A DNA stretch of 64,000 nt, taken from positions 33,990-97,989 of the forward strand of contig JAJPYB010000011.1 in assembly GCA_021205185.1 (NCBI GenBank), given 5' to 3'. The notes under the pieces were generated by a model. It did not search any database. It worked only from the letters and a program-made list of their open reading frames with translations, and was not told the origin of the DNA. The stretch is from Ruminococcus sp. (GTDB taxonomy: Bacteria > Bacillota > Clostridia > Oscillospirales > Ruminococcaceae). Below are positions 20,897 through 43,976 of the stretch, piece by piece. The stretch's first letter is position 1. The number at the start of each line of letters is the position of its first letter. The translations under genes were made by a program, and so were the position numbers.

Positions 20897-22069
20897 TTCT
20901 CCCAGCTGAATATCAACCCCTGAAAAGCATCCGCCTGTTCCTTACTGGAAAACACTATCTCGATTTGATCCTCCACAGTGCAGTCATCTGAAACAATCAG
21001 TATATGCCGCTGTGAGAAATCATAATTGAATGTAACCGTCGGAGCTTCGAACAGTTCTCCATCCACATATATTTCCGTCACATTATCGCCGCTCTGCCAG
21101 CTGTAATCAATTCCAAGAATACCAGAAATGGAAAGGCCTGCGATTGTGTAGGTGGTGTCATCTATGCGTTCAAACTCATCTGCTGCAATATAGCGAAAGT
21201 TTTCAAACTTCACAACATTAGCATTCACAGGCTCTATATCATAATCCGGGAAGCCTTCAATGTCATACACTCCCTGGTCTATTACCTTTTCAACCACTTC
21301 TGCGTAGATCGCCTGACCAGCATCATTCGGATGAACACCATCATCAGTATAAGAATCGTAATCCTCAGAGAACGGCTCAATCGTGTCAGCAACTGGGATG
21401 CCATAATAATCACAGATCTCCTGTATTGTTACCATCTTCTCGGTGTAATCCTTCTGTGAGGATTCGAGTATGGAAATGATGGAGCAGTTTTCATACTTGC
21501 TGCTTATTGCCCTTATTATCGTTTCATAATAAAGGGGGAAGTCTGTCGTGGAATCGTTCTGGCCGTAACATATCACAGCCAAGTCATAATCAATGTCATC
21601 GTCCAGCTTCATAACCCTGCTGTAACCGGCATAGGAAGCGTTACCACCCATGGAAACATTGGTAAGACTAACAGTCCCTCCGTATTGTTCTGCAAGGTAT
21701 GAGTTGAGCAGGGTCGTCCATCTGTGTGATTCATCGCTTGCACCGGATGTTGCCCCAATGGAATCCCCGACTATCAGGATATTTACATCATAACCCTTGT
21801 CGAGTTTCTCATAAAAGCTTGAATTAACGATATCCTCTTGTCTTGCAGCTTCTTCTGCCTCAGATGCTTCCTCTTGAGCTTTCCGTTCGGCATCCAGTTC
21901 CTCTTGGAGGCTTCGCAGATAAGCTGATTGTTCTTCCTGCTGGATGTGGTCATAGTAGAGCATTCCTGCAAGACCAACAGCAAGAACAATAATTACAATT
22001 GTTATAATGATGTTAAATGTACGGCTAGAGGAATACCCCCCGCCTATGGTGGTGATGACTATGCGACAT
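20893..22069 (-). CDS. SGNH/GDSL esterase 1; the N-terminal leader and TM anchor are out of frame at a G6 tract (uninterrupted ORF 20893-21963)
   Basis: GDSIG and DDGVHPN motifs are present. The ATG at 22069 has an AAGGAG SD and encodes MSHSHHHHRRG, then the G tract. The TM segment NIIITIVIIVLAVGLAG lies in the catalytic-domain frame and is joined only if the tract is G5 or G8. Confidence 0.7.
22036..22041 (-). repeat. homopolymeric G6 tract (C6 on the plus strand); candidate slipped-strand switch
   Basis: Read directly: gaata-cccccc-gcc. Confidence 0.9.
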
Positions 22070-22198
22070 TTTCCTCGTCTCCTTCATTACATTGTTACTC
22101 TATTTCAAGCTGCTGCATCAGCAGCCGTACTTTCTCCTTCTTCTCGTCCGAGACTACTTTCTCAAGCATCTCTTTTCTTCTGCTCAGCCCTCTGAACT

Positions 22199-23202
22199 TT
22201 ATGTTTTCTTCTTTCCGTACAACCACGGTGCATATTTGTTGCTGAACAGTACAATTGGAACGATAATAAACAAAACTGCAATTGTCGCGGAAAGAAACCA
22301 GAACAATTCAGATCTGCCAGGCAAAATTAATACTGTTAAACGCATCATGGCAGCCCTACAAATCTTGCATATAGCAAACTGCCACACATATATTACAATT
22401 GAATTTCTTCCGCACCAATTCAAGTATGAGGAGTCTCTTAACCATCCTGCAATGCCCCACACGCCTGCAATTCCAAGAAGAGCTGTAACCGCAAACAAAA
22501 GGAGATTACCATACTCATTGTCATACATTGCCACAGGCGAATTTAAATCAACAACACAGAAGAAAACGATAACCAATATGGTACCAATAAAACCATTAAT
22601 ATACGAATTTCTGAATCCGAGCTTTTCCTTAAAAGTCTTTATCTTCTCTCTTCGGCTGCCGAAAACATACCCGCATATGTAAAAGAAGAACGCCATCGGT
22701 ACAATACTAATATAGGTAATTTCAATCCCATTTTGACTGAACAGCAGCAAAACAATAATCGCTACAATATCAACAGCAACAGTAATGATAAGTCCTTTGG
22801 ATTTGGTCAAATCAAGCACCATCGTTAATGCAAGATACAGCACAGACACGAGAAACAAAACTGGCAAAAACCAATAGTCGAAAATAAAGCTAAGAGGATT
22901 TGGCAAACTTCCACCAGCTGATAAGTTATCAACAACAGTTACAATATATTGCACAACCAGCAACGTTACCTGCGGAATCAAAAGAGAGCGAGCTTTCTTT
23001 ATGTACTGCGAATACCCCCCCGATATGGCTTAGCCGTCATTCCGGACAGAAAGAAAAACAACGGCATATGAAATGCAAGAATAATCTTGTTAAGATAAAA
23101 ATCAAGATTACCACAGCAGTGTCCTGTAATAACCAAAAGAATTGCTATGCCTCTGGCTACATCTATTTGTTTATCTCGATTCATAAAATTGCCTCCAATC
23201 AA
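22199..23202 (-). CDS. acyltransferase family 3 (AT3) O-acyltransferase 1, split into two ORFs (22999-23202 and 22199-22981) at a G7 tract
   Basis: The N-terminal piece reads RDKQIDVARGIAILLVITGHC...FHMPLFFFLSG, an AT3 signature. The downstream 260-aa piece is polytopic membrane. G8 or G5 fuses them (..KPYRGG-YSQYIKKARSLLIPQV..). Confidence 0.75.
23015..23021 (-). repeat. homopolymeric G7 tract (C7 on the plus strand)
   Basis: Read directly: aata-ccccccc-gat. It coincides with the AT3-1 frame break. Confidence 0.95.
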
Positions 23203-23261
23203 TACATGATTTCAGATCTCAATTCATTATTATCATTGTAAAAATATATGAATTTATTATC

Positions 23262-24785
23262 TCAGTGTTTACCAATCAGTTGGCAAACTTTCTTAATCAT
23301 CCATTTAAACTCATCCGTCCAAAAGCCTAACAAAAGGAACAGCACATTAATCACAATAAATACAATTATGGCCGCTACAATCCATGAAAGCCACCCATTT
23401 ATACTAAAAAGACATACAGTAATATGAGTAAAATATCCAAGAGCGGATACAATCATAAATCTTAATAAATATGTTATATAATAATTTTTAGGCGACCTTT
23501 TAAACCCGTACTTGAATACAATATAAGGATCATACCAAACTGTGGTAATTAACCTGGCAACCAAAGTGGCAAATACAACACCAAATACACCCATTCTGTT
23601 AACAAGGATAAAATCAAGTGCCAGATTAATTATTGCCATTACAACTGGCCTGAGTTTGCCGTACCAAAAAAGTCCATACGTGTTCCGAAAAGCAGAATTC
23701 ACACTAAGCATACCAAGCGTATAAAAATTCATTGATATAGCCCAAACACAAATTTCGCTTAACTGATACTCTGTTCCTATCCAGACATCAATAAATGGAT
23801 TCATCAGCGCCCACAAACAAATCGTACAAACCCCGTAAATCCAGAAATTAAAAAAGTCTAGCCTTTTAAACAGGGTATGATTGAAACTATCACTTTCCGT
23901 TGCCGTTGCATTTCCTACACTGGCAGTGAAACCTGAAACAATCTGTGACAAGAGACTGTTCAGGGCATTCGTTATCATAGTATAGTTGGAATAATAACCA
24001 TTTATAATTACCCCCAAAAATCTGGAAATAATTATACCATCGGTACTGTTGAGAAGCGTTGTCCCGACCTTGTAAAGCGATACTGCAAAAACATTTTTCT
24101 TTATACCGTTTTTTTCCTCTGCGTCAAGTTTGTAATCATACTTCTTCTTTATATAAGGATATCGTTTGTTACATTCATGCGATACATAAAGATTTTTTAC
24201 CAGTGTAATTACTGTATTAACCAAAAGATAAAGGATGAAATTATGTGTAACTGACAGCATAATACACTGAAATAGAGCTAAAGCGATTGAGCAATAATTA
24301 TTAATTTTCGTAAGCACATATGCTTTTTGATCGCTTGTAATCAACAAACTCTTATACGACCAAAAATAGCTTATCCCAGAATTCAGGACAAATAAAAGGT
24401 ATATAATTCTTATTGATGAAATATCCGGCATTTCACTTACCAGATATTGCAGGAAAGGTGTAAGACACGCACCAACAACAAGAACCACGGTTCCAATGAT
24501 GTAGTATATTTTTGAATACAAGCGCATCAGTGCGTTAATTTTCTTCTTATCACCGTTTGCCAATGGTTCATATAAACTAAAAGGGATTGCTAGACCAATT
24601 CCAAGTTCAGCCAAAGAAAGCATGGAAATGATATTTGTAAACAGACCATTTACACCTACATATTCCGCACCTAATTGCTTGACCAGAACCGTTCTTGTAA
24701 TGAAAGTTAAGACCGTTACTAATCCCTGGTTTATAAAAGCGTATATTATATTTCTCGTTGAATTCTTTGTCCTTGAATTTTCCAT
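23262..24785 (-). CDS. wzx: Wzx-type oligosaccharide flippase (MOP superfamily)
   Basis: 507 aa with about 12-14 TM helices. The N-terminus KNSTRNIIYAFINQGL..L..F..R..L...LG.EY.G is typical of polysaccharide biosynthesis/flippase proteins. Confidence 0.8.
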   Translation of the reverse strand: MENSRTKNSTRNIIYAFINQGLVTVLTFITRTVLVKQLGAEYVGVNGLFTNIISMLSLAELGIGLAIPFSLYEPLANGDKKKINALMRLYSKIYYIIGTVVLVVGACLTPFLQYLVSEMPDISSIRIIYLLFVLNSGISYFWSYKSLLITSDQKAYVLTKINNYCSIALALFQCIMLSVTHNFILYLLVNTVITLVKNLYVSHECNKRYPYIKKKYDYKLDAEEKNGIKKNVFAVSLYKVGTTLLNSTDGIIISRFLGVIINGYYSNYTMITNALNSLLSQIVSGFTASVGNATATESDSFNHTLFKRLDFFNFWIYGVCTICLWALMNPFIDVWIGTEYQLSEICVWAISMNFYTLGMLSVNSAFRNTYGLFWYGKLRPVVMAIINLALDFILVNRMGVFGVVFATLVARLITTVWYDPYIVFKYGFKRSPKNYYITYLLRFMIVSALGYFTHITVCLFSINGWLSWIVAAIIVFIVINVLFLLLGFWTDEFKWMIKKVCQLIGKH

Positions 24786-24812
24786 AATACGTTTCGCTCC
24801 AAAGTCACATGC

Positions 24813-25980
24813 TTAATGCATTATTATGTGGTAAATATGTCTAATAGCTCTATACAAATAGTTTCCTCGCATTTCGCGATTAATCATACTCCAGCTTTTA
24901 TTTTCAATGTTTTTCATCAGCCTCATCCTCTTCGGATTCTCTTCAGGATGTATCCATACATGTCTGCTTCTGTCTTTTAGGTAATCCAATTCAACTGTAT
25001 GATAATTCAGTTCTTGCTTGATTTCGTTCCAGACTTTCTGCCCTTGTAAACTTGAAACAATCACTGCACTAATTCCCATATTTTCATTCTTTTCAAGAAG
25101 TTCTCCAGTATATCCCCAAAAATCAGCTAATGTAATATCCGCTATCCGCGGAAGTTTTGCATATTTGCAATGATAGCACGATTCCCTCAAATAAAAATTT
25201 CTAAGGAATCCAAATTGAAAATCATTCTTTTCACTAGTAGTGCAAATTCTTTTATTATTTTTAAGCTCAAATGAAATATGGTTGGGATTCCACCCAAATC
25301 CACCTCTCTTATCTCGCCAGCATGTACTAATAATACGGGAATTGTATTTTTTTTCCAAGTATTCAATATATTTTTTATATACCAATTGCGATGGTACACC
25401 ATGACAAACCACCTCGGTTGTTACCAAATTAGGAGAACGCTGTGTCCCTATACATTTATATAGTGCTGCAACTTGACATGGGGTTCCAGAAAAGAGAACA
25501 TATTTTCCATTCGCCAGATCTTCTTTTACTGCATTATAACATTCGCCCATTTGACTCTGTAAGTATTTTGATTTTCGAAAAGCTTCGCACTTATCTAAAG
25601 TATCAGCCCTGCCATGGAAAACGTCGAAAGGTTTTTCATACATAGCACCATATACAATACCACCCTTTGATATAATACATTTAGCAATTGGCCAAAATAC
25701 TCCGCCACTAGAACTATTCATACAGATTGTATTGTCGTTATTATATGCTGCATATACACCTAATGTTTTGTTTGTGTTATTCACTTCATTTTTCATGCAG
25801 CAAACGCTAACACACTTCCCACACCTTATACATTTCTGTCTATCAATGATTGGATAACGAAAACCGCTTTCATCGGAAGCCATTCTAATGCACTTAACTG
25901 GACACACATTTACGCATCCCTCACATCCTCAGCACATTTCTTTTTCAATTACAAATTTTTCATCCGTCATTTCTTTTCTC
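24813..25980 (-). CDS. FrhB-like (coenzyme F420 hydrogenase/dehydrogenase beta-like) Fe-S protein 1, with an in-frame TGA at codon 14
   Basis: The ATG at 25980 has a GAGGAG SD: MTDEKFVIEKEMC-TGA-GCEGCVNVCPVKC. A second cluster, CIRCGKCVSVC, follows. It is paralogous to 26034-27221 and 42004-43166. The track ORF starts at a GTG after the stop. Confidence 0.65.
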
Positions 25981-26033
25981 CTCGACTATAAAACTTATCA
26001 TCGTGGAAATCAGAAATTCGTGGCAAAACTATA

Positions 26034-27221
26034 TCAGTTGAACTTAAGCCTATTTTTATACTTGTTCCATTCTGAATATAATTTCTTCAAGAACAGCTTT
26101 GCCTTAGATGCCTCGGACTCTTTCCTGCCTGTAATCTCATGAATCAACACACAGAAGTCCTCTTTTTGGTACCTGCTCATAAATTCATCTCGATTGGCTT
26201 GAAATGTTTTACATCCTGACAGCCAGCCAAAAACAGCTCTTCCTTTCATTTGATATTCACTGAATACCAAATGCTCCTTGATTGCGTCAAATAGTTTACA
26301 TCCCTTCTCGGAATTAAGCGCAATCATGGACAGTCCTTCTCGCTGATCTTCAGTTGATGCATGATGAGCCTCGATAAAATTGTCAGAAAGCGTCATATCT
26401 CCCATTCTCGGCAGATAGGCGAATTGACAATTGTAGCATGAAGGCCGCAGTCCGTATGATTTAATAAAGCAAAGATTGAACTCATCATCATATGCTTCTT
26501 TCGAGATTTTTCTTCCATCAGATAGCACTGTAGTAAAGACTACAGGATTCCACCCATGGCTCTTATCCCGATAGTAATCAACAACTTCTGATCCTTCGGT
26601 TTCTTTTATAGAAGAGCAAAACTTATCAAAAGCCGCTGTTGATGGCACACCATGACATTTCAAATCACAGGTATAAAGATTATCAAAGTCTTTTCCCAAA
26701 AACGAGTAAAGACCGGCAACCTGACAAGGAGTTCCTACGAATAATACTGGTTTCCCTGTTTTTAATTTTTTTAAACATTCTTTATATGAATTTCCAATTG
26801 CACTTTGGAAATACTTTGAAAAACGCAACTTATCTACATCTTCGTAGTCATCTATACAGGTGTGTCTGATATCAGAAATATAATATTTTTCTGCTCCAAA
26901 TACATACCCCCCCCCAGATAAAATTTTATCTGCAAGTAAACTGAAAACTCCTCCGGAAGAACTCTCTCTTCTAACGCTAATATCACTGTTATAGCAGTTT
27001 ATCGCCCTCACAGTGGAGAATCTTCGCCCTATATTCGTTCTGACCCAGTTGGCAGAAGGACAAACTTTTTCGCACTTGTGGCATTCAACACATTTATCCT
27101 GGTCTACCACCGGATACCGAAAGCCATGCTCATCTGCTATCATTGCAATTGCACCTACTGGGCAAGCATTAGAGCAGGCCTCACATCCATAGCATTTACT
27201 TTTTCGAGTAATTCTAATCAT
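26034..27221 (-). CDS. FrhB-like Fe-S protein 2 (intact; contains an in-frame G9 tract)
   Basis: 395 aa with an N-terminal 2x CxxCxxCxxxCP ferredoxin motif (CYGCEACSNACP, CVECHKCEKVCP). It lies next to a pyruvyl transferase gene, a commonly seen pairing. Confidence 0.75.
   Translation of the reverse strand: MIRITRKSKCYGCEACSNACPVGAIAMIADEHGFRYPVVDQDKCVECHKCEKVCPSANWVRTNIGRRFSTVRAINCYNSDISVRRESSSGGVFSLLADKILSGGGYVFGAEKYYISDIRHTCIDDYEDVDKLRFSKYFQSAIGNSYKECLKKLKTGKPVLFVGTPCQVAGLYSFLGKDFDNLYTCDLKCHGVPSTAAFDKFCSSIKETEGSEVVDYYRDKSHGWNPVVFTTVLSDGRKISKEAYDDEFNLCFIKSYGLRPSCYNCQFAYLPRMGDMTLSDNFIEAHHASTEDQREGLSMIALNSEKGCKLFDAIKEHLVFSEYQMKGRAVFGWLSGCKTFQANRDEFMSRYQKEDFCVLIHEITGRKESEASKAKLFLKKLYSEWNKYKNRLKFN
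26907..26915 (-). repeat. homopolymeric G9 tract (C9 on the plus strand), in frame, encoding Gly-Gly-Gly
   Basis: Read directly: tacata-ccccccccc-agata. It codes SGGGYVFGAE. Confidence 0.95.
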
Positions 27222-27228
27222 AATTTTG

Positions 27229-28416
27229 TCACCTCTTTATAATAGAATAGCTGTTGTATGCTTCTTTAATATATTCTGGCATAACGGCATTCAAATGAGT
27301 GCGGATATCATTCTGGTTTTCATTCAACCATAAAAAAGCGTTAGCTATTTGCTCTTTATCGTCTACTTTGTCCACCTTAAGCACATAATTTTCATCTGTA
27401 CCAAACAAATCCCTTGCGATTCCGACTGATTTAACGGAATAACCGATAACCAGCGTTGGAACACAACTGGAATAAGCCGCAATAGTAGAATGAGTTCTTG
27501 CACCAATAAACATCTGACATTGCGAAATGATATATTTAAGTTGAGCCGCATTGTAGTCTTCCCCAAGCAAAAGCATATCCCCATAAGACTCGCAGGCTTG
27601 ATACAGCTTTTCCAAAGGCTTATAATCCGAGCCTCCCATTACATGAGGAACAAAGATTGGAGTATAACCCTTTTCAATTATCTTCTTAACCATATTTTGA
27701 TATGCTGCAAAAGTGACCTCGGCACTTCCTCCATACTGCGGATCAAGGATTAAAGAACTAAGATTAACTCCCACCATTTTACCTTTTTTCCACCCTTGGG
27801 GAAAATCAACCACCTCTAAAGGCATTGCAAAAGCCGGATCGGGATAGTATCTTATATCTTTTTTAGAATACTTAGTGGTCAAATTTTGTTTACTTGTTCT
27901 CTCCCTCACAGTTATAGCATCGAATTGAGAAATATCGCTTATCACTTCATCAGTAATATCATTTTCACCAAATGAGCAATCATACATAATCATCCTGGCA
28001 TTCGCCTTTATTCTTATCACCGAATGAAGCTCATGCAAATTTTCAAACATATTATAATGGATATCATAATTGTCTCCACCCACACATATGACCACATCGC
28101 TCTTTTTACATATGTCAATCAGTTTCGAGTATCGAATACTGGCAGCAGCAGTCCGGAGCTTTAGAACTTTTTTAAAAAACGTATAAATTGCTCCCATAAT
28201 AAGATTTTTCTTGGTCACAGTTGACTTTCTAATAAATCCCTTTGTATTAGGTAGTGGTGGCAGTTCTTCTATGTCAGCATCATTTGAGACAATCCACACC
28301 TCTGCATTGGATTCATTGTGGCATATGATTTCCGATATCCCTCTGGCTAATGCCTCTGAACCGCGATTGTTTTTTACTGTATTCAAGATAACTATGTATT
28401 TACTCATGTATAACAC
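27229..28416 (-). CDS. polysaccharide pyruvyl transferase 1 (WcaK/CsaB-like)
   Basis: 395 aa with N-terminal VILNTVKNNRGSEA, VICVGGDNYD and C-terminal IGARTHSTI motifs typical of the family. Confidence 0.8.
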   Translation of the reverse strand: MLYMSKYIVILNTVKNNRGSEALARGISEIICHNESNAEVWIVSNDADIEELPPLPNTKGFIRKSTVTKKNLIMGAIYTFFKKVLKLRTAAASIRYSKLIDICKKSDVVICVGGDNYDIHYNMFENLHELHSVIRIKANARMIMYDCSFGENDITDEVISDISQFDAITVRERTSKQNLTTKYSKKDIRYYPDPAFAMPLEVVDFPQGWKKGKMVGVNLSSLILDPQYGGSAEVTFAAYQNMVKKIIEKGYTPIFVPHVMGGSDYKPLEKLYQACESYGDMLLLGEDYNAAQLKYIISQCQMFIGARTHSTIAAYSSCVPTLVIGYSVKSVGIARDLFGTDENYVLKVDKVDDKEQIANAFLWLNENQNDIRTHLNAVMPEYIKEAYNSYSIIKR

Positions 28417-29465
28417 TCTTTTCTGTTTTTAATAATGTTTTCACTTTTGAATAAAGAAGATATATCAATAATGGGACAACAATCCCGACTATAGTGTAGC
28501 AAATCCACCAGCCGCCATTTGAGTATAAATACCCATGTGTTTCTAAGGCTTCAATAGGCTCTTTATATATCAATATCTGTAACACAGTAACAAGTTTAAA
28601 AGCTGCGAAGTGAAACATTACAATTGGAAGAGTGTGCTTACCCATATATGAAAGTCCCGAAGCTAACGGTGTTCTGCCAAGAAGACATCCGACCGCATAA
28701 CACATAGCTGTTCCTGAAATAGAGCATATGATAAAGTACAACGGATTAACCAGCCTATTCATATTGATCGATAAGTCTCCAAACATATGCATTATACTAA
28801 TTATAATCGCACCAACAAGCATAATGATAACAGAATTACGTACTGACAAGTTTCTCTGCACTCCACTCTTCTTTGCAACAAATCCAATCTGAAATAGAAT
28901 CAATACCGAGAATATATTTCCGTACTTTCCAATTGGACTATAATACAATAACCATCCAACGAGTAAGCATATGAAGCAAATAAACGTCTTCATAACTTCC
29001 TTCTTTTTGAAACACTTCGTGCAAAACCAATCAATTACAGCATATAAAATCGTGGCACAGAACATTGTTCTTAAAAACCACATTGCTCCACTTAAACTTT
29101 CTCCACCTGAAAAGAAAAAACACTTGAGCAAACCGGTTAAAATCTGCTTTACACTGTACCCCCCCCCCGCCGGTAATATGCAGCATATTAAGCGGATTAT
29201 GTAGAAGAACAACCGCCGAATTAAATAGCACGCAAGGGACATATAGCGACTTAATTCTCGATATAACTAACCCTTTCAAAGATGCAAAATCTTTAGAGTG
29301 CCTTTCGCTATAGCAAAATCCTGCTATAACAAAGAATACAGCCATATGAAACTGGTAAATCCACCTTGTATATACAAACCCGCTGTGCCCGATCACCATT
29401 AGAATTATTCCAACAGCTTTAGTAATATCAATTGTTCTATTTCTTTCCATCTTTTGTTTCCTCAC
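28400..29465 (-). CDS. acyltransferase family 3 (AT3) O-acyltransferase 2, frameshifted at a G10 tract
   Basis: The N-terminal piece reads RNRTIDITKAVGIILMVIGHS...FHMAVFFVIAGF. The membrane-domain frame continues (GGGYSVKQILTGLL...) if the tract is G9 or G12. Confidence 0.75.
29159..29168 (-). repeat. homopolymeric G10 tract (C10 on the plus strand)
   Basis: Read directly: ctgta-cccccccccc-gccgg. It coincides with the AT3-2 frame break. Confidence 0.95.
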
Positions 29466-30547: not shown

Positions 30548-30562
30548 TCCTCAACCTCGTGA

Positions 30563-31540: not shown

Positions 31541-31571
31541 ATATTGCTCACCAAAATTTTATCAATTTATC

Positions 31572-34438: not shown

Positions 34439-35710
34439 TCATTTTGGCTTTATACTCCATTTAAAATTCAGATTGCTCTCACTGGTAGAACTATGATTAC
34501 CTAAACAGTTAAATGCCACATAAATTAATATCACCACAGGCACAAACTTATATTGCCCATAACAAACTCCAGAATAAATGTTATATGTTATTCCTATAAT
34601 GGCGAAATATTGTGCGTATTTTAGTGATAAACTGTCTGTTCTCCTAAGTATGATCCTCACGGGTATAATCAACTGGACTATTAAATACCATATACCACCA
34701 AATATCCCAAGGTCGATGAAAGCCTCAAGGTATGGCACATCCATCCAATAGTAAGCATAACCATGTCCAAAAAGTTGCTGAAACAATGTACCGCTATTAA
34801 AAATCTCAGGAAATTCGCTAATCATTGCATTTCTACTGCTCGCGGCAGCATCTGTTCCACTACTCGTATTTCCAAAATAAGTATTCACGCCAAGAGTTAG
34901 CTTATCCAAATAATTCTCAATAAGTTCTCCGAAACCGGGTATTAATCTCATCGCTATCCATAGAGCAAGAATCGCTAATAATAGACTCCCAATTACCCTG
35001 AAAAGCATCTGCGAACTAATCTTCAAGGAAGCGCTCTGCCATAAATGATAAAAAAAGATTATTATCAAGGCTACCATTAATCCACGTCTGGTGCACGCCA
35101 TCACATCATAAAATGCAACAATCGCAAATACTATCTTAAGGAACTGCAAAAAGTAATTTTTAGTATGGAAGAGCAACATTGAACACAAGTAGTAAAAAGC
35201 AATTACTGAAAGGCTCAGTCTATCAGCGCCAGAAGATAAATATTGTATTGTTCCTCCAAAATTAGTGAATTTATCAGTAACTAAATAAAACAAAAATACT
35301 GAAAATATACCTGTCGACGCCCACGTAAATGCTACGATGAATTCCCCATCTATTTCCCTGGTGTTTGTCATCAAGGCCAAAATAAATACAATTGTATACA
35401 GCGTGTAGATTGTACCTGTGCCTGAAGCCCACATGCTTGCGCCTGAAACTACAGCGAGTATTGCTACATATACATTATATCCTAATGTTATATTCATCTG
35501 CCAGCCATGCAGTGGCAAGCACCCCGATAATAATTTTGAATAATCTGGAATCAACACGAGACTCAGGAAAAAAATAACATTTGTCAAATCAATAGTTAAG
35601 CCCGTCATTGATTTAATAATTATGGAGAACTGTATCCCTGCCAAAGCAAGAACTAACCCAATTTCTAGCCTATGTTCTTTCAGACTGCTTATCATATCGA
35701 TTCTCCTCAA
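34439..35710 (-). CDS. wzy: Wzy-type polymerase / O-antigen-ligase-like polytopic membrane protein
   Basis: 423 aa with about 10-12 TM helices and a larger loop late in the protein. The call rests on context with Wzx and the priming transferase. Confidence 0.6.
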   Translation of the reverse strand: MRRIDMISSLKEHRLEIGLVLALAGIQFSIIIKSMTGLTIDLTNVIFFLSLVLIPDYSKLLSGCLPLHGWQMNITLGYNVYVAILAVVSGASMWASGTGTIYTLYTIVFILALMTNTREIDGEFIVAFTWASTGIFSVFLFYLVTDKFTNFGGTIQYLSSGADRLSLSVIAFYYLCSMLLFHTKNYFLQFLKIVFAIVAFYDVMACTRRGLMVALIIIFFYHLWQSASLKISSQMLFRVIGSLLLAILALWIAMRLIPGFGELIENYLDKLTLGVNTYFGNTSSGTDAAASSRNAMISEFPEIFNSGTLFQQLFGHGYAYYWMDVPYLEAFIDLGIFGGIWYLIVQLIIPVRIILRRTDSLSLKYAQYFAIIGITYNIYSGVCYGQYKFVPVVILIYVAFNCLGNHSSTSESNLNFKWSIKPK

Positions 35711-35725
35711 TCCCAGACATAATCA

Positions 35726-35992
35726 TCATTCAATATATTTCTCAGCTATCTTCTTATATGAAAAGGTCTCCATACCTTTCTCTTCTGCAACACGTTTCAT
35801 TTCTTCGTACTCGCCTGATTCCTTTAAAATACTTAATATTTTCTCATGTATCTCATACACACTATCCTTATAAAGGAACTCAACACTTCCTCCAAGAACA
35901 ACATATGTGGTTCCTTCCCAACATTTACATAACATTGGAATACCTTGTCCCGCAACCTGCTCCCTCAACAACCAGTTTGTCATAATTGAATG
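35726..35992 (-). pseudogene. orphan C-terminal fragment of a GT4 glycosyltransferase (duplicate of the 3' end of 38335-39492)
   Basis: REQVAGQGIPMLCKCWEGTTYVVLGGSVEFLYKDS...AEEKGMETFSYKKIAEKYIE compares with WEQVAGLGIPMICKYWEGTTHIDLGGNVEFLHKDS...AEEKGMETFSYRKIAERCIE. The upstream part of track ORF 35726-36205 is antisense read-through into the epimerase gene. Confidence 0.75.
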
Positions 35993-36020
35993 AGAGAGCA
36001 ATGATGTTATCAGACCCACT

Positions 36021-37019
36021 TTACTTCTGATTATTAATTTGTTTCTCAATCCAATTGTACGATTCCAGCAATCCTTGCTCCAAAGAAACAGTTGGCTCCC
36101 ACCCAAGAACAGCTTTTGCTTTGCTGTAATCTGCACAACGAGCTTTATCGCCCTCTGGCTTAGAAGTATCAAAGAACGGCTTAATGTCCTTACCAGAGAT
36201 TTCAATCACCTTATATGCAATTTCCTTGATTGAAGTACAATAAGATGGCCCTATCTGGATGATTCCCTGACCCCATCCTTTTTCCAGAGCAAGCACAAGA
36301 GCATTGACAATATCATTCACATGGATAAAAGCACGACCCTGTTCGCCACTACCCCAAACATTAAACGGCTCAGCTGGGTGATTAACAGCTTTGCGAATGA
36401 GTGCAGGGATAACCTGGCTTCTCTCGCCAAAGTCAGTAGGTGTCCCATAGACATTGTGTAACATTAGTATGCTGCACGGGATTTCAGTTTCCTTCTCCAA
36501 GTATCCCATTTCCAACTGTCCCATCAGCTTGCTCCAGCCATAAGCAGATTCAGGCATTGCAGGGAAAAGTTCATCTTCACGCAACGGCTCAGGATTCAGC
36601 GTATTCTGACGTGTCAATGGAAAGCTACACACCGTACCAACATACAACAGACCCTTTATTTTTTCCCTTCCTGCCTTTCTGCAGCAGTCAAAAACATTTG
36701 AATTAATCAAGTTGTTGATGCGAAAGAGTTCTCCCTGATTCTTAAACACATAATCAATTCCAGCAACGACATCTGCCAGATGAACGACATAATCTGTCAT
36801 CCCGATCACTTCTTTGGTTTCCTCATAATTTGTGAGGTCATTCTTAAAAAAATGGGTATCAATATCAATTACAGGTCGTCCATTGTCGTCGTAAAGATTC
36901 TCAACCTTTCCACGCCAGAGATTATCTGCCACGTAGACATCCCAACCCTCTTTTACAAGGCGCTTTACAAGATTAGAACCAATCATGCCACATCCGCCTG
37001 TTACCATTATGCTTTTCAT
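36021..37019 (-). CDS. NAD-dependent nucleotide-sugar epimerase/dehydratase (extended SDR)
   Basis: 332 aa with TGGCGMIGSNL (GxxGxxG) and catalytic YGWSK (YxxxK). Confidence 0.8.
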   Translation of the reverse strand: MKSIMVTGGCGMIGSNLVKRLVKEGWDVYVADNLWRGKVENLYDDNGRPVIDIDTHFFKNDLTNYEETKEVIGMTDYVVHLADVVAGIDYVFKNQGELFRINNLINSNVFDCCRKAGREKIKGLLYVGTVCSFPLTRQNTLNPEPLREDELFPAMPESAYGWSKLMGQLEMGYLEKETEIPCSILMLHNVYGTPTDFGERSQVIPALIRKAVNHPAEPFNVWGSGEQGRAFIHVNDIVNALVLALEKGWGQGIIQIGPSYCTSIKEIAYKVIEISGKDIKPFFDTSKPEGDKARCADYSKAKAVLGWEPTVSLEQGLLESYNWIEKQINNQK

Positions 37020-37079
37020 CGTTAAAGTCCTCCTATATTTGAACTCAATTTATAATAAATGCACAATATGGAAGCGCAT

Positions 37080-38147
37080 TTAATGACAGTTAATGTCTAA
37101 CACACTCCTGTAAATTTCTATGTTCCTTTCTGTGAAGACATCCGGATCAATCTCTCTTCTGAAGTTTTCTGCCTTGTCGCTGATTTTCAAATCAGAAGCC
37201 AGTACTTCGTCAAGAACTCTGGCAAGGTCGTCTGTGTCTTCAGTTACAAATGTCCTACCAAGTTCGTGCTCTCTAATAGCGTTTCCTAACGTTCCGTGCT
37301 CTGAACCAACAACATATTTATGATTCCACACAGCCTCCATCATCGGGCCACTAGCGGCATCAAATCCTTTTCTGTATGGCAACACAACAATATCTGTTGC
37401 TGCCAGCGCCAACATATAGTCCTCGTCTGGTAGCATTCCAGCTCTAAATTTTACACAGTCAGAATAATTTTTCGTGTGTTCGTCAATATAGTCAAGATTA
37501 ACATCTTCGCCAGCTCTGGTTATATATAAATAGAAAGGTTGTGATACTTTACTAAGCGCATCAATGAGTAAGTCTGTTCCTTTAGCCTTAGATGCAGCAC
37601 CAAAAACAGTAATCAGTTTTTTATCAAGCGGAACGCCTATCTTCTTTTTTGCATCAGATTGACTAATGTTAACACTTGGAAAAAAACATGGATATTGAAG
37701 ATTGCTCACGTTCTTAATCTTCATCTTTCTAAGATGATTCTCTATCAATTCAGTATGTACAAAACCGAAATCAATCTTTTTGAAAATGCGATTAATGGAT
37801 ACTTCTCGGATAAAACTGAACGGCATACGATGAAATGTAACAACAATAGGCTTTTCTATCCGTGAAAGGTACATTCCAAAAAAACGATAAAGCACATCAC
37901 CACACAAAAAATGTACTACATCTACATTCTCTTTTTTTGCAATTTGACTAATTTCATTGATCCAAAGCTTATATCGTCCAAGCGTATCCTTAGCATGCAT
38001 CTGAATTTCTGAAACAAATTGTTTGTTTTGAATACCATCATCTATAGAAGGGCACAGTATTATATTTTCGGCATTTACACTAGACAATTGTTCTAAGTAT
38101 TTTTTTCTATGACCGCCCCACGAAATCTCAACATACAGTATTTTCAC
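37080..38147 (-). CDS. glycosyltransferase family 4 (GT-B, group 1)
   Basis: 355 aa. The C-terminal half has the typical GT4 nucleotide-binding region (VVLPYRKGFDAASGPMMEAV..VVGSEHG). Confidence 0.7.
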   Translation of the reverse strand: MKILYVEISWGGHRKKYLEQLSSVNAENIILCPSIDDGIQNKQFVSEIQMHAKDTLGRYKLWINEISQIAKKENVDVVHFLCGDVLYRFFGMYLSRIEKPIVVTFHRMPFSFIREVSINRIFKKIDFGFVHTELIENHLRKMKIKNVSNLQYPCFFPSVNISQSDAKKKIGVPLDKKLITVFGAASKAKGTDLLIDALSKVSQPFYLYITRAGEDVNLDYIDEHTKNYSDCVKFRAGMLPDEDYMLALAATDIVVLPYRKGFDAASGPMMEAVWNHKYVVGSEHGTLGNAIREHELGRTFVTEDTDDLARVLDEVLASDLKISDKAENFRREIDPDVFTERNIEIYRSVLDINCH

Positions 38148-38334
38148 AACAACTACCTCGCCTTCATTCTAACTAATTTTCTTGCTTAGCTGTAAAATTC
38201 TCTTCGTTATCTAAGTTGTCAAAATTTCCTGAAAAAATAGTTCCAAATAATATCCACATAAACATTGGGAATAAGTTTGTTATATTACGCAAGTAGACCT
38301 CGCCTAGTGATCTAATTAAAAAGGCACATAATCA

Positions 38335-39492
38335 TCATTCAATGCATCTTTCCGCTATCTTCCTATACGAAAAGGTCTCCATCCCTTTTTCTTCAGCAAC
38401 ACACTTCATCTTTTTATATTTCCCCGGTTCTTCTACTACACTCATGATTTTCTCATATATCTCATCAGCACTGTCCTTATGGAGAAACTCAACATTTCCG
38501 CCAAGATCAATATGTGTGGTTCCTTCCCAATATTTACATATCATTGGAATACCAAGCCCGGCAACCTGCTCCCAGAAGACAGAGTGACGACCAGGAAAAA
38601 CCACAAGATCGGCTGCTCCAAAATACTTATCAGATTGATCTGACTGCACCCAACCAATATACTGAACTCTATCTGGAACAACTAAGGAGGCTACTTCATC
38701 CTTCATTTCTGGCACTACTGATCCAAAAACAATCAATTTAACTTTTGGATTCTGAATCTTAGCAACAGCTTGCATGAGCAGCAGGGTTTGTCTCTTCGCC
38801 ATATCTATTTTTCCGCCAGTCATAATCAAGAAATCATCCGAGTGTATACCATACTTCTCACGAATTTCTTGGCGAATTCCAGGTTGCTTAGCTTCCATAA
38901 CTTTTTCATCGTCAGCACCCATAACTAAAAGTTCACATTTTTCTGGAGGAAGCTTGTAAACATCTTTCAAGAAGTCAACCCTTGCTGGCAAGACACCGTA
39001 AAATTTGGTTGTGTACGGTTCTATTAAATGTGCGGCTCTTTTCCAGACAATTCTGTGCAGAATATTTCTCGATACCCAATTCGTTGCACTGTTAGAGAAA
39101 TCTGCATGGTTATCCACATAAACTCGAACATTCGGATGCTGATTTATATACTTTACTACCTTATCAATGTCTCTGAACTGGCAGCCGTGGATAAATAAAA
39201 CATCTGGGCTGCTCTTTACTATGGCATCATAAGTCCCTACATACCTCTTCAATGTGCGATACAACTTCTCTGGTCTTTTATAATCCAAACGGGTTACTTT
39301 TATATCATACTCGTTTTGATAAGTACTGGCTTTTTCTATATATGCCGCCTTTCCATTCTTATCAAACGTAACAAGTGATGCAATCACTTCCACACTATAT
39401 CCAAGTTCTTTATGGAATTTGGGGAGCATATTTTCCTGATAAGAATAGTTGTCTGGAAAAAAACAAGCTAAACAAAGATGGACTATTTTCAT
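38335..39492 (-). CDS. glycosyltransferase family 4 (GT-B, group 1)
   Basis: 385 aa with a GT4-like C-terminal domain. It is the source copy of the 35726-35992 fragment. Confidence 0.75.
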   Translation of the reverse strand: MKIVHLCLACFFPDNYSYQENMLPKFHKELGYSVEVIASLVTFDKNGKAAYIEKASTYQNEYDIKVTRLDYKRPEKLYRTLKRYVGTYDAIVKSSPDVLFIHGCQFRDIDKVVKYINQHPNVRVYVDNHADFSNSATNWVSRNILHRIVWKRAAHLIEPYTTKFYGVLPARVDFLKDVYKLPPEKCELLVMGADDEKVMEAKQPGIRQEIREKYGIHSDDFLIMTGGKIDMAKRQTLLLMQAVAKIQNPKVKLIVFGSVVPEMKDEVASLVVPDRVQYIGWVQSDQSDKYFGAADLVVFPGRHSVFWEQVAGLGIPMICKYWEGTTHIDLGGNVEFLHKDSADEIYEKIMSVVEEPGKYKKMKCVAEEKGMETFSYRKIAERCIE

Positions 39493-40121
39493 ACAGATTT
39501 CTCCTTAAATAAATCCACAGAATTAAATGCCTCTGCTTCCTGTTGTATCTTTTCATCTGGCCAATTCCACCATTGAGATTTGCTTATAATTTCTACAGTT
39601 TCATCATCAAATCTCTTTCTGATCATCCTTGCTGGGTTTCCTGCCCAAATTTCATATGCACCTATATTCTTTGTTACAATGGAACCCATGCCAATAACAG
39701 CACCATCACCGATTGTAACACCAGCCTTTATCATCACACGATTTCCAATCCACACATCATTACCTATTGTCGTTCTTTGAAAAATGTCAAACTCATGTCG
39801 GGAGAAATTCTTCTTCATAATATTTTCCCATTTATGAAAAACAGGGGAAGTTGAAACCCAATCTGTAGGGTGAGATGTACCTCCAATATAACAATCTGTA
39901 GATATTGACGTAAAATTGCCAATGTCAGTATCTGATACAAAGCTGTTATTGCCAATATAAGAATATTTTCCAATTCTGCCTCTATAGAAGCGAACTCCTG
40001 AACAAATTGCCGCTGTCTTATCGACCTCTGCTTCCTGTAATACGGCAAATAAAGCGATATGAGAAAATAATCTTTTTGGAATTGATAGAATATTTTTTAT
40101 AAGCACCAGTAATCTACGCAT
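39489..40121 (-). CDS. hexapeptide-repeat acetyltransferase of the xenobiotic/CatB-Vat-like type
   Basis: 210 aa with IGNDVWIGNRVMIKAGVTIGDGAVIGMGSIVTKNIGAYEIWAGNPARMIRKRF. Confidence 0.75.
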   Translation of the reverse strand: MRRLLVLIKNILSIPKRLFSHIALFAVLQEAEVDKTAAICSGVRFYRGRIGKYSYIGNNSFVSDTDIGNFTSISTDCYIGGTSHPTDWVSTSPVFHKWENIMKKNFSRHEFDIFQRTTIGNDVWIGNRVMIKAGVTIGDGAVIGMGSIVTKNIGAYEIWAGNPARMIRKRFDDETVEIISKSQWWNWPDEKIQQEAEAFNSVDLFKEKSV

Positions 40122-40138
40122 TTATCATCACCCACTGT

Positions 40139-41044
40139 TTACGCTTTCAAATCTCCCTGCGGCTTCATCTTGATTCCCTTCTTCTCGCATTCCAGTAGTT
40201 TTGCATCAACAAGGAATCGATACCAGTACGCCTGTAGGAAGTGAAATACCTTTCCCTCTGGTCCGTCTAAGAAACCGAATTTTATATAGTATCTGTATAT
40301 GAAATAGATATGCGCCCGCCAGAACTTCGGCAGCCTGTAATAACCGCTGTTCTTGACCACACGCTTCATCTTTGCCTGTCCAGAGGATGTTCCTTCTTCT
40401 TCGAGGGCTGTGTCCATCTGATTCTCCAAAGTCATCTGATGATCAAGCACCTCCCTGTTGCTGTACTAGTTGTGTTTAGCTGTCCACCATTCCAGATCCT
40501 TTTGGTTGTTATCAATCAGGTCATGCTGGAAGGTCACAGTCGTTCCTTCCGAGAGGATCATATGCTCATCCATGAGCTTCTGCTCACAGGAGGCTTTACC
40601 TGTCCGGAAGATACGGAGAAGCAGCTCCGGATATCTGCCGCCGTGCTTAATCCAGCGACCCATAAAGTAGACCCTGCGGCGGAGAATAATGCCGTTGACC
40701 GGCTCTTTGATGGTCGGCAGCTTTTCTTCAATCTCTGCTGCCAAGTCCTCCATCAGCTCTTCATCCGAATCGAACCGCATCGACCACTCTGTGGTGATGT
40801 TTGTATTCTGTAATCCCCAGTTCAACTGATCGGCATAGCTAATCCATGTGTTTTGATAGAAATTAAGCTGTGAGCCAATCTTCCTTAGTTCTGCATCCAA
40901 ATCATGACAAAGTGCCTCAGTGCCGTCTGTAGAGTAACTGTCCACAATGACGAACCGCTTCACAATTCCTCGGAAAGATTCAATGCACTTTCTTAAATTC
41001 TTTTCTTCATTTTTCGTAAGTATTACTACTGTCAGGTCAACCAT
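40139..41044 (-). pseudogene. glycosyltransferase family 2, tandem paralog of 41106-41999, interrupted by an in-frame TAG (40466-40468)
   Basis: ..EWWTAKHN-TAG-YSNREVLDHQ.. compares with the intact paralog ..EWWIGKHNWYSNKEVLDQQ.. A Trp codon TGG in the paralog aligns to the TAG here. The frame is otherwise continuous. Confidence 0.75.
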
Positions 41045-41105
41045 TATGCTGCCACCTCCTCACGAGATGTCACATAACAGTTCGGAATGAATACCCTATG
41101 GGGTA

Positions 41106-41999
41106 TTACCCCCCCGACCTTCTGGCCGGTTCTATCTTAAGTTCTCCTTGCTTTTCCATCTTTGTCCCCAGCTTCTCACATTCGTAAAGCTTGGCATCCA
41201 CAAGATACCGATACCAGTACGCCTGCAGGAATGTGTATATCTTTCCTTCTTTACCGTCAAGAAAACCGAGCCGTATGTAATACCGATATATGAAGTAAAG
41301 ATGTGCCCTAAAGAATTTCGGCAAGCTGTAATAGCCATGGTTTTTGATGAACCGCTTCATCTTTGCCTGCGTGGATGTCGCTGTGTCCTCCACAGATTCT
41401 GCACTCTCGGCTTTCATCTGCTGGTCAAGTACTTCCTTATTACTATACCAGTTATGCTTTCCAATCCACCACTCTAAAGACTTCTGGTTGTTGTCACTGA
41501 AATCATGATTGAACGTAACTACATCTCCGTCTGTAACGATGAGATGCTCGTCCATCATCTTCGTCTCGGACATGCCGTGACCTACACGGAATATCCGCAG
41601 AAGAAGCTCCGGATACTTACCTCCGTGCTTCAACCAGCGACCCATGAAGTACACACGCCGCCGGAGGATAACTCCATTCACACTTTCAGGAAGGCTATCT
41701 AACTTCTCATCTATCTCCTGAGCAAGTTCCGACGTGAACTCCTCATCAGCATCCACTTTCGCAACCCACGCTGTGGAGAGATTTATATTATCAAGTGCCC
41801 AGTTAAACTGAGCAGCATGATTTTCAAATTTATGCTCATACACATCAGTTCCCAGCTCTTTGGCAAGAGTCACAGTATTGTCCGTGCTGAAGCTGTCCAC
41901 CACAACAATCCTCTTAGCCACACCGTAAAAGGAATCGATGCACTTTTTTAAGTTCTGTTCCTCATTTTTAGTGAGGATGATTATTGTCAGATCAGCCAC
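41106..41999 (-). CDS. glycosyltransferase family 2; a G7 tract occupies its last three codons
   Basis: 297 aa with IIILTKNEE.NL..C..S......VVVDS.STD...DADE motifs. It ends ..RRSGG-TAA. Confidence 0.8.
   Translation of the reverse strand: MADLTIIILTKNEEQNLKKCIDSFYGVAKRIVVVDSFSTDNTVTLAKELGTDVYEHKFENHAAQFNWALDNINLSTAWVAKVDADEEFTSELAQEIDEKLDSLPESVNGVILRRRVYFMGRWLKHGGKYPELLLRIFRVGHGMSETKMMDEHLIVTDGDVVTFNHDFSDNNQKSLEWWIGKHNWYSNKEVLDQQMKAESAESVEDTATSTQAKMKRFIKNHGYYSLPKFFRAHLYFIYRYYIRLGFLDGKEGKIYTFLQAYWYRYLVDAKLYECEKLGTKMEKQGELKIEPARRSGG
41109..41115 (-). repeat. homopolymeric G7 tract (C7 on the plus strand) at the stop codon of the GT2 gene, abutting a 7-bp hairpin
   Basis: Read directly: ggtatta-ccccccc-gacc. 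The adjacent AATACCC-tatg-GGGTATT hairpin lies at 41086-41103. Confidence 0.9.
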
Positions 42000-42003
42000 G
42001 TTT

Positions 42004-43166
42004 TCATCTCCTAATCTTATATAGATTTAAGGCAACGAGGATTTGTTTAATCCTATATTTCAAGTATGTCCTTCTGGAGTGCGGCGCATATTTTCTTATG
42101 ATCCCGTCAAAATCCAGCTTGTCATAATCCTGCCAAAACGCTGCCCTGCTTTCTGGGCATTTAAATGATTCCTTAAGGGGAGGCTGCATGCTCTTTTCTA
42201 TATCAGTTTCCTGATAATCAATATTTCCGGCATTCACCGTCTTTAAAAAAAATTTTTGCCTTCATCACTGTTGATCAAAACAAGCGAGACACCTTTATCG
42301 TCATTGAATCCAGGAGCCGCATTATCAATTCCCCAATAATCTGCAATTGTTATGTCTCCCGGATGATTAATGTCCTTATATGGGCATGAATAACAGGATG
42401 GGCGCATGTATTGTGGCCATAGAACAACTCTGTGTATACACATGAATCTTTTCTGACATCGTCAAAATATACTGATTCAATATGGGTAGACCATCCGAAA
42501 TTTCTCTTATTTCTGAAATCAATTCCAGTTGCTGTCTTTTCAATGCGTTTCTCCCACCATTCCTTATAGTCACGATACACACGTGGGCTGGGAACTCCAT
42601 GACAAACTATATCCATAAGAAGCAGATTATCTGGAACTTCCCCTAAATAACCTATAACAGCTGCTACTTGGCATGATGTCCCGCTGAACAGAACGGCGCG
42701 GCCACTTTCGACATCCTGTTTTATTTGTGTATAAATCGAGCTATCCATTCGAGACTGTACATATTTGGATCCACGCATACGGTCTCTTCCTGACGCATTT
42801 TCCGTCCTAATATGAACCACTTCCAATGATGGTTGTAAAACCGAACCATAAATTACCCCCCCGCACAAGAATAAGATCGCAAACAGCCGTGAAAATTCCA
42901 CCTGACCGGCTTGCCATTCGTGTATCTATATCTTTGTGTTTTACTGCAAGACAACGAATGAATTTATTCTTAATGGTTTCAACATGATTGGCGTTTTGAA
43001 AAACACAAGCAGTCTTACAAAGACCGCATTCGATGCACTTCCCTTTATCAATTAAGGGATAGAGAAACCCCTCATTATCATCAACCATACTGATTGCTGA
43101 CTTAGGACACCTTGCTATACACGCCTGACATCCACAGCATTTTTCTTTATCTGAATATAAGTTCAT
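42004..43166 (-). pseudogene. FrhB-like Fe-S protein 3, broken into four ORFs (G7-tract frameshift plus two further frameshifts)
   Basis: The pieces at 42807-43166, 42350-42901, 42243-42443 and 42004-42237 are collinear with paralogs 1 and 2. The breaks are at the G7 tract, near 42425 (..FYGHN / MRPSCYSCPYK..) and at the T8 run (A8 on the plus strand, 42246-42253). Confidence 0.75.
42856..42862 (-). repeat. homopolymeric G7 tract (C7 on the plus strand)
   Basis: Read directly: aatta-ccccccc-gcaca. It coincides with the first frame break, and G6 or G9 would join the frames (..LILVRGG-VIYGSV..). Confidence 0.95.
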
Positions 43167-43239
43167 GCAAAATTATTCCCTTCATGAATTTTCCAATATA
43201 CAGTTATTCTTTGAAACTACGAAAAGAATTCAAAGAATT

Positions 43240-43976
43240 TTATCCATACACATACTCACTAATCGCTTCCGCCCATCTCTCATATGCCTCATCATAAAGA
43301 TGGATACCATCCTTTGTCAGTTCTTCCGGCATTACCCCATCTACTGCATACAATTCATATAAATCAATAAATATTATGCCCTTCTGTTCCGCCATTTCTT
43401 TTATTAACCCATTCAGTTCGCAGATATTTTCATTAGATATAGAATTCCCTCTCATATCTGTGTTCACTGGAAGAATGCTTTGAATGTAAATCTCAACATT
43501 GGGGCATTCTTCCTTAATTTCAGCAAGCAGTACCTCATACCTCTCAACTATTACATTCAAGTCCCCTTGGTAGTTGTTCAAATCATTGACTCCGGCCATA
43601 ATGAATATTTTCTCTGGATTGACTGCTGAAATCATTCCGACACGTGTCTGCATTTTTGTGATCGTGTCACCAGTCAGTCCTAAATTAACTATGGTCAAGT
43701 CCTCGAAGTAATCCTGAAAGGACGAACCCCTAGTGATTGAATCCCCAAAGAAAACAACATCTGAATCTATATCCAGCTTTTCTAAACAAGATTCCCATGA
43801 AACAGCTGTCCAGTCTGTGGAAACGGTTGGCTCTGCCAGTCCAAGATGTGATAGAATTTTATTGTCGTATCCTGATGTGTGCAAAAGGAAGCCAAAAGCA
43901 CATAGCCATACGATATTAGTAATTACCAATAGAGGAAGAAGAATACCCCCCCACGCCAAATTTTCTTATTTTTCAT
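43240..43976 (-). CDS. SGNH/GDSL esterase 2 with an N-terminal TM anchor; the ATG start is out of frame at a G7 tract (track ORF 43240-43959 uses a TTG)
   Basis: FFGDSITRGS and DGIHL motifs are present. The ATG at 43976 has a GGAGG SD and encodes MKNKKIWRGG, then hits a stop after 17 codons unless the tract is G8 or G5. Confidence 0.75.
43946..43952 (-). repeat. homopolymeric G7 tract (C7 on the plus strand)
   Basis: Read directly: gaata-ccccccc-acgcc. Confidence 0.95.

Follow-up and report, generated by a model that had tools for sequence, protein, structure and literature searches.

Can commensal Clostridia of the gut vary their surface polysaccharide stochastically, gene by gene, through changes in the length of short G homopolymers? 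The question is raised by a polysaccharide locus in a stretch of 64,000 nucleotides (the window) from a contig assigned to Ruminococcus sp. (JAJPYB010000011.1 of assembly GCA_021205185.1, positions 33,990 to 97,989), in which a first-pass annotation of the sequence had noticed nine poly-G tracts and proposed a multi-switch system of phase variation. Length differences between populations, effects of run length on reading frames and recurrence of the design in 22 of 80 related loci all support this proposal. We consider it likely that the locus is a repeat-driven, multi-gene contingency (phase-variation) system, in which about seven independent decorating genes act on a constant backbone.

A scan of the window shows nine runs of C on the plus strand, all between 22.0 and 44.0 kb, with lengths of 6, 7, 9, 10, 7, 9, 7, 7 and 7 in order of position. 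Since the genes of this region all lie on the minus strand, each run consists of G when read in the sense direction. The coordinates and the uniform orientation given in the first-pass annotation were exact, and its claim that the 64 kb hold no further G or C run of 7 or more agrees with the scan. The sole other G/C run of at least 6 in the window, a C6 at 19697-19702, forms a ribosome-binding site, and the plus strand of the window has no G run longer than 5.

These runs are in excess of chance within coding regions. Run-length counts in the window are bimodal (58 G4, 7 G5 and 2 G6, then 5 G7, 2 G9 and 1 G10), and extrapolating the decay of run lengths predicts 0.16 runs of at least 7, where 8 are observed. 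The same excess appears against 1000 synonymous-codon shuffles of 22 locus genes, which leave the encoded proteins unchanged and draw on the same local pool of codons, with the GGG codons from the runs included: the shuffles contain on average 0.97 runs of at least 7 (maximum 5) against the 8 observed, and 0.26 runs of at least 8 against 6 observed. The earlier argument that long G runs are not expected by chance thus had the right direction (0.16-0.97 expected versus 8). Single G7 runs are less extreme than the runs of G9-G10, because a naive independent-base model, worked out by hand arithmetic, allows about 2 runs of 7.

What the runs do to their genes was read from in-silico length variants of each run, by which ON and OFF states were assigned to run lengths (Table 1). 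Four runs sit at internal frame breaks, two between a start codon and the gene body, two in frame and one in the end of a GT2 gene. For the coding runs, length decides the frame, excepting FrhB-like 3, which has extra breaks, and the tail of GT2a.

Table 1. The polysaccharide locus and its nine G runs; positions refer to the window, and ON or OFF denotes the state predicted for a given run length.
Feature	Position	Strand	Context	State by run length
Wzx/Wzy-type polysaccharide locus	20893..47415	minus	all genes; from Pfam scans and the map of open reading frames	
G7	43946..43952	minus	codons 9-11 of SGNH esterase 2 (SGNH2; ATG 43976, gene to 43240)	OFF G7, G9; ON G8
G7	42856..42862	minus	first of three frame breaks in FrhB-like 3 (43166..42007), decayed pseudogene	
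G7	41109..41115	minus	last codons of GT2a (41999..41106), then directly TAA	
G9	33818..33826	minus	frame break of LbH acetyltransferase b (LbH_b; 34024..33475)	ON G8; OFF G9 (window), G7
G7	32147..32153	minus	in frame in GT11 fucosyltransferase (32510..31572)	ON; G6 gives immediate TGA stop, OFF
G10	29159..29168	minus	frame break of AT3 acyltransferase 2 (AT3_2; 29450..28400)	ON G9 or G12
G9	26907..26915	minus	in frame in FrhB-like 2 (27221..26034), Ser-Gly-Gly-Gly-Tyr	ON
G7	23015..23021	minus	frame break of AT3 acyltransferase 1 (AT3_1; 23184..22199)	ON G8
G6	22036..22041	minus	codons 10-12 of SGNH esterase 1 (SGNH1; ATG 22069, gene to 20893)	OFF G6; ON G5 or G8

In three genes a single-base change in the run yields one continuous protein. 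Adding one G at 23015 gives a 328-residue AT3_1 that matches positions 2-324 of the 326-position AT3 model; removing one at 29159 gives a 349-residue AT3_2 that matches positions 3-325 of the same model; and removing one at 33818 gives an LbH_b of 182 residues. The two SGNH genes are built alike, with a good ribosome-binding site before the ATG, 8-10 codons between the ATG and the run, and a membrane helix after it. In the window the ATG of both is out of frame with the body, which is corrected by -1 (or +2) in SGNH1 and by +1 in SGNH2; the G6 of SGNH1 is probably a contracted run. AT3_1 and SGNH1 lie next to each other (23184..20893), like a split AT3-SGNH O-acetyltransferase pair, and both are OFF. 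Each has a run of its own, and therefore two independent switches would gate one presumed activity.

The first-pass annotation had placed six tracts at frame changes, each of which a 1-nt change in the tract alone would rejoin. The length variants confirm the changes it required (-1, +1, -1, -1, -1 and +1), and the six resolve into four internal breaks and two separations of an SGNH start codon from its gene; what did not stand is that repair of the run suffices for FrhB-like 3. A change of -1 at 42856 does join two segments of this gene (ON length there G6 or G9). Further frame breaks follow near 42425, outside any repeat, and at an A5T8 run (42246-42258), and they are the same in both metagenomes described below. 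A tblastn comparison with the paralogs runs through frames +3/+1/+3 and then meets another break, and after repair of the run the FrhB_C domain is still truncated (2-99 of 150). FrhB-like 3 is a dead, decayed pseudogene and not a switch. The run in its paralog FrhB-like 2 is at the same protein position.

The tracts of FrhB-like 2 and GT11 had been described as in frame, and both reading frames are intact; the tract said to form the end of a GT2 gene is likewise followed directly by its stop codon. At G8 the frame of this gene, GT2a, would continue through the 62-nt spacer to a TAATG that overlaps the start of the next GT2 (window 41044-41115). In L066 (82.7% identical), one of the related loci, an orthologous G10 run occupies the same place, and one frame gives an ATGA overlap (L066 12005-12092). 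The GT2a run may thus alter only the C-terminal tail, or toggle translational coupling to the downstream GT2 paralog. Pfam scans agree with the gene families assigned earlier, mostly decorators of the glycan, and the backbone genes (priming transferase, Ugd, polymerase and flippase) are free of G runs, as had been stated. Other repeat types were sought in the locus and none were found.

If the runs are switches, their lengths should differ between populations. Exact-protein look-ups led to two Logan assemblies of short reads that contain the locus, SRR15221356 and SRR15221354. (Look-ups with ilvC and with a 281-residue unknown gene gave no exact match, probably owing to differing start calls.) The contigs of SRR15221356 match the window with 100% identity, and 8 of 8 run lengths agree. 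Those of SRR15221354 cover 47962-29159 and 29157-23435, and over these 24.5 kb they differ from the window by two single-nucleotide polymorphisms (SNPs) and three run lengths, with no other difference. The run at 43946 (SGNH2) is G9 in SRR15221354 and G7 in the window and SRR15221356; the run at 33818 (LbH_b) is G7 in SRR15221354 and G9 in the window; and the run at 32147 (GT11) is G6 in SRR15221354 and G7 in the other two. The runs at 42856 and 41109 are G7, and that at 26907 is G9, in both samples; the run at 23015 is G7 in SRR15221356. The check on tract lengths in other data that had been proposed for the locus thus finds 3 of 7 comparable runs differing between near-identical populations.

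From its sequence, the change from G7 to G6 is predicted to turn the fucosyltransferase from ON to OFF. GT11 is called as 121 plus 191 residues in SRR15221354 and as 312 residues in SRR15221356, and both forms fall in one protein cluster. The other two differences (G7 versus G9 and G9 versus G7) would each have needed at least two steps, passing through the ON length G8. The run at 29159 is the most unstable: the contigs of both metagenomes end inside it, with G10 in SRR15221356 and at least 12 G in SRR15221354. In SRR15221346 and SRR15221347, from the same study, the contigs of a related locus end after 8 G in the run of an AT3 gene, which is G10 in the corresponding bin. Contig ends inside runs suggest mixed lengths within samples, or could be stutter. 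As for the SNPs, one at 47887 in the ilvC terminator hairpin (47902..47866) changes G5A5 to G6A4, so that a substitution at its edge makes the G run one base longer; in SRR15221354 an A>G SNP lies at 40853, within the GT2 paralog.

These comparisons bear on the most prosaic explanation, that the run lengths are errors of homopolymer sequencing or assembly and that the true lengths are invariant and in frame everywhere, which the first-pass annotation had named as an outcome that would overturn its proposal. The source does appear to be a metagenome bin, and contigs do break at the longest runs. Yet SRR15221356 is an independent assembly and repeats every length, SRR15221354 differs at two runs by 2 nt, and all 97 A/T runs of 5-8 nt in the 18.8 kb compared have unchanged lengths, which makes generic homopolymer error unlikely. 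Moreover, runs that encode in-frame Gly-Gly-Gly in intact genes are no artefacts, and related runs occur in dozens of assemblies from different projects. We regard this explanation as extremely improbable.

The recurrence of the design was examined with a scan anchored on Ugd, one genome per species, which gave 80 polysaccharide loci (1.17 Mb) from Lachnospiraceae, Oscillospiraceae and other Clostridia. The same architecture is found in 22 of them. Together these loci hold 32 G/C runs of at least 7, 30 of which have G on the strand that is sense for Ugd; of the two C runs, the one in L079 belongs to an LbH gene that is itself encoded on the opposite strand, and its coding strand therefore again has G. 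As in the window, the length distribution is bimodal, here with a peak at G9 (G5 329, G6 36, G7 8, G8 6, G9 10, G10 4, G11 1, G13 1). The genes hit are 10 LbH acetyltransferases, 4 AT3, 2 GT4, a GT2 (the GT2a ortholog, with its run at the same C-terminal place) and one each of a Branch-type transferase, a TupA-like ATP-grasp protein, a priming transferase and a CapD-like protein. Intact and broken frames both occur among them, a mixture of ON and OFF. Blautia intestinihominis CLA-AA-H95 (L013) and Gallintestinimicrobium propionicum (L054) are among the relatives with runs. Three additional relatives have runs as well: L093 has two of G9, and in L094 and L095 runs of G7/G6/G6 lie exactly at the frame breaks of LbH, AT3 and GT4 genes. 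With one widely sampled Ugd allele, P0119 (21 contigs), the locus was found without runs, and its contigs stop at a strain-variable region.

About 6 runs of the related loci are intergenic. One of them, a G7 in an Oscillospiraceae bin (L007 5120-5160), is placed between the two elements of a promoter-like sequence, TTGACT-15 nt-TACAAT, that precedes a polysaccharide gene; a G9 there would yield the optimal spacer of 17 nt. This arrangement suggests that the relatives may have transcriptional as well as translational switches.

The runs have a further property in common. Read on the G strand, runs of at least 7 are followed by TA in 7 of 8 cases in the window and in 22 of the 30 sense-strand cases in related loci (29 of 38 together), compared with 6% of runs of G3-G6 (P about 3.5e-28). 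T directly follows these runs in about 90% of cases (short runs, about 24%), a pyrimidine directly precedes them in about 85%, and a T-rich stretch lies before that, for a consensus of tttY-G(n)-TA. The flank is independent of reading frame, gene family and species. Because the ON frames differ (GGG TAT, GGT ATT, GTA ATT), a codon or amino-acid constraint is not supported, and the constraint on TA acts on the nucleic acid and not on the protein. Other candidates lacked support as well: an immediate stop codon fits only about 40% of the runs, the match to a -10 promoter box is no better than chance, and Shine-Dalgarno mimicry accounts for the T, not the A. The known primase trinucleotides of Firmicutes are CTA and TTA, and these do not match GTA. 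Growth of runs by A-to-G changes at their edges, of which the SNP at 47887 is an example, could explain the pyrimidine borders, not the specific TA. The 100 kb of Campylobacter phage NCTC12673 that were read contain two runs, both without a following TA, a sample too small to serve as a control.

A signal in the nucleic acid, regardless of frame, is what would be expected if the frame were restored by recoding, that is, if RNA polymerase slippage or ribosomal frameshifting occurred on the runs in some of the transcripts or translation events, with UA as part of the signal and no change required in the length of the DNA. Runs of 9-10 are in principle long enough for slippage on the transcript. 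Transcript slippage is established for A/T runs, and G:C hybrids slip poorly. Contrary to this explanation, the DNA lengths do differ between samples, no known G-run recoding signal fits, and recoding would be meaningless for runs in promoter-like spacers or at other intergenic sites. Recoding in place of DNA switching is therefore very unlikely in our view.

A bolder proposal takes the flank as the mark of a class: pyrimidine-G(7-13)-TA would denote a clade-wide type of glycan switch in gut Clostridia, perhaps in Firmicutes more widely, with a flank-specific process contributing to the formation or instability of the runs. We put it forward tentatively and with considerable doubt. Candidate processes are replication priming or polymerase hand-off beside the run, A-to-G conversion at the boundary that is stopped by pyrimidines, and a recognition or recoding signal. 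Were the proposal correct, multi-locus phase variation would be a normal property of abundant commensals and no speciality of pathogens. The TA flank would in any case serve as a simple signature for finding such switches, and as a handle on mechanism if it affects mutability.

Several observations weigh against a system of phase variation at this locus. Only two samples carry it, and contig breaks at G8-G12 could partly be library or sequencing stutter. The window has five of its seven switchable genes in the OFF state. Among a collection of 15 billion proteins, the ON forms of SGNH2, SGNH1, AT3_1, AT3_2 and LbH_b (eight length variants) have no exact match; of the run-bearing genes, the collection contains only the two that are in frame. 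The conserved TA is not predicted by simple slippage. Finally, the locus contains pseudogenes whose damage is independent of runs (the additional frameshifts of FrhB-like 3, the TAG of the GT2 paralog and a GT4 remnant), and some of the breaks at runs may be decay too.

Several of these points would fit irreversible decay, the main rival explanation, in which the runs are fragile sites that inactivate an accessory locus by ordinary pseudogenization, with no selected, reversible switch. That most run-bearing genes are OFF in both samples, that their ON forms are missing from the collection and that SGNH1 has only G6, as though contracted, all point the same way. Against decay, the runs exceed what amino-acid sequence and codon usage lead one to expect, which indicates that they were built or kept and not merely tolerated, and the design recurs across many species, in which run length peaks at G9 and genes in either state, ON or OFF, occur. 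Lengths are still changing in genes that are already OFF (SGNH2 and LbH_b) while the remaining DNA is nearly identical, and two runs lie in frame in intact genes, one of which is OFF in the other sample. On balance we think decay unlikely as an account of the locus as a whole.

Together, our data suggest a model in which the surface polysaccharide made by the Wzx/Wzy pathway is decorated by the products of genes with G runs of 6-10 in their coding strand. The presumed targets are three O-acetyltransferases (two of AT3 and one of LbH type), two SGNH esterase or transferase partners, the GT11 fucosyltransferase and an FrhB-like protein encoded beside pyruvyltransferases. Slipped-strand mispairing at replication would add G:C pairs to the runs or remove them, presumably reversibly and at a high rate. 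A change of one or two bases would shift the downstream codons into or out of frame or, in the SGNH genes, bring the start codon into or out of register with the body. Each gene would flip between ON and OFF independently, with the run-free backbone genes unaffected. A clonal population would then be a mixture of cells with one backbone and varied acetyl, fucosyl and pyruvyl-related decorations, and with seven switchable genes the number of combinations could reach about 2^7. Selection among these variants could come from phage, antibody or competitors.

The genes of the locus are, in order, a priming transferase, GT4, Ugd, SGNH2, FrhB-like 3, GT2a, the GT2 pseudogene and an LbH gene; two GT4 genes, an epimerase, the GT4 remnant, a Wzy-like gene, LbH_b, an unknown gene, GT11 and GT2b; and a pyruvyltransferase, AT3_2, a second pyruvyltransferase, FrhB-like 2, FrhB-like 1, Wzx, AT3_1 and SGNH1. 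Promoter-like sites lie at 47799-47771 and 47550-47522. The chromosomal flanks hold ilvBNC, pstSCAB, SpoIIP and Spo0A, which identifies the host as a spore-forming member of the Clostridia, and the DNA would seem to stem from a metagenome bin of gut Clostridia rather than from a cultured strain. Many Lachnospiraceae and Oscillospiraceae have copies of Ugd that share 81-96% identity with the protein encoded here (44018-45259), and similarly close copies carry the labels Streptococcus suis, Ligilactobacillus, Alistipes and Prevotellaceae, a pattern of similarity that appears to indicate either wide horizontal spread or mis-binning.

The two damaged glycosyltransferase genes deserve separate mention. 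The GT2 paralog (41044..40142) has an in-frame TAG at 40466-40468 where GT2a has Trp (KHN*YSN versus KHNWYSN), so that its inactivation is not caused by a G run. The GT4 remnant (35729-36205), a leftover fragment between the epimerase and the Wzy-like gene, contains a stretch of 78 residues that shares 70.5% identity with the C-terminal end of the GT4 encoded at 39492..38338. Elsewhere in the window, an imperfect tandem repeat of the ACCACA/ACGACAACAACT type (3789-3867) lies inside a gene for an NlpC/P60 peptidoglycan hydrolase (3022-4353) and probably encodes a Thr/Pro-rich linker.

Poly-G switching of glycans has apparently not yet been reported for gut Clostridia. A search of the open-access literature for phase variation driven by repeats in Lachnospiraceae or gut Clostridia brought up nothing relevant; the open-access text on repeat or phase switching that we did find concerns Campylobacter, Neisseria, Helicobacter, Bifidobacterium and, for inversion only, Bacteroides. 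To our knowledge, almost all known cases in which gut commensals vary their surface glycans stochastically are promoter inversions in Bacteroides. The present locus and its 22 counterparts among 80 relatives suggest that commensals of the Lachnospiraceae/Oscillospiraceae type possess numerous repeat switches, each independent of the others, for O-acetylation, fucosylation and further decorations of their polysaccharides, with a bearing on phage-host dynamics, targeting by antibodies (immunoglobulin A) and the persistence of strains. There is a practical side as well, in that genes with such runs get miscalled as pseudogenes in metagenome bins and contigs break at the runs. In four metagenomes assembled from short reads with de Bruijn graphs, the contigs of L002, L003, L004, L091, L092 and L096 end exactly within runs of 8-12 G. 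In bins of Clostridia, runs of this kind may systematically interrupt contigs and lead to genes being wrongly called as pseudogenes.

The closest parallel is provided by the poly-G genes for capsule, lipooligosaccharide and flagellar glycosylation in Campylobacter jejuni, an organism that lacks mismatch repair. Shared with it are coding-strand G runs of about 8-11 inside genes, several independent switches per glycan locus, decorating rather than backbone targets, ON/OFF control by frameshift, and run lengths that are polymorphic between close relatives. The locus described here differs in belonging to spore-forming, Gram-positive commensal Clostridia of the gut, in its Wzx/Wzy organization with targets mostly in O-acetylation (LbH, AT3 and SGNH), and in the pyrimidine-Gn-TA context, which is missing at the two G runs of the Campylobacter phage, a small control. 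The likeness to the Campylobacter phasome appears to be one of mechanism, as the genes here look Clostridia-type (the closest Ugd proteins are from Lachnospiraceae and Oscillospiraceae bins). In C. jejuni, poly-G switching has been tied to escape from phage (PMC3417653, PMC8355987).

Single elements of the proposed system have parallels elsewhere. As in futA/B/C of Helicobacter pylori with their poly-C tracts, a fucosyltransferase is switched by a G:C homopolymer, here ON at G7 and OFF at G6; the glycosyltransferase family is another one, and the fucosyltransferase is one of about seven switches. In Streptococcus pneumoniae, the O-acetyltransferase genes wciZ and wcjE are inactivated or restored at short repeats, with a change of serotype. 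This resembles our locus in that a Firmicute carries a repeat-switched O-acetyltransferase in a Wzx/Wzy capsule locus; it differs in that the organism is a pathogen and a single gene is affected, through a TA dinucleotide or other short repeats, whereas here there are multiple poly-G runs. The pilus of Bifidobacterium breve, like our host a gut commensal, is turned ON and OFF by replication slippage at an intragenic G run, as deep sequencing showed (PMC9187656). B. breve is an actinobacterium with one or two such loci among its pilus genes, in contrast to nine runs in one glycan locus here. For Bacteroides, a gut commensal of the same habitat, references given in PMC12413058 and PMC11868660 describe promoter inversion that varies the capsular surface polysaccharide and is linked to phage. 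The stochastic variation of a surface polysaccharide is common to both, and the means differ: site-specific inversion of promoters switches whole loci in Bacteroides, whereas slippage in the Clostridia would switch single decorating genes within one locus.

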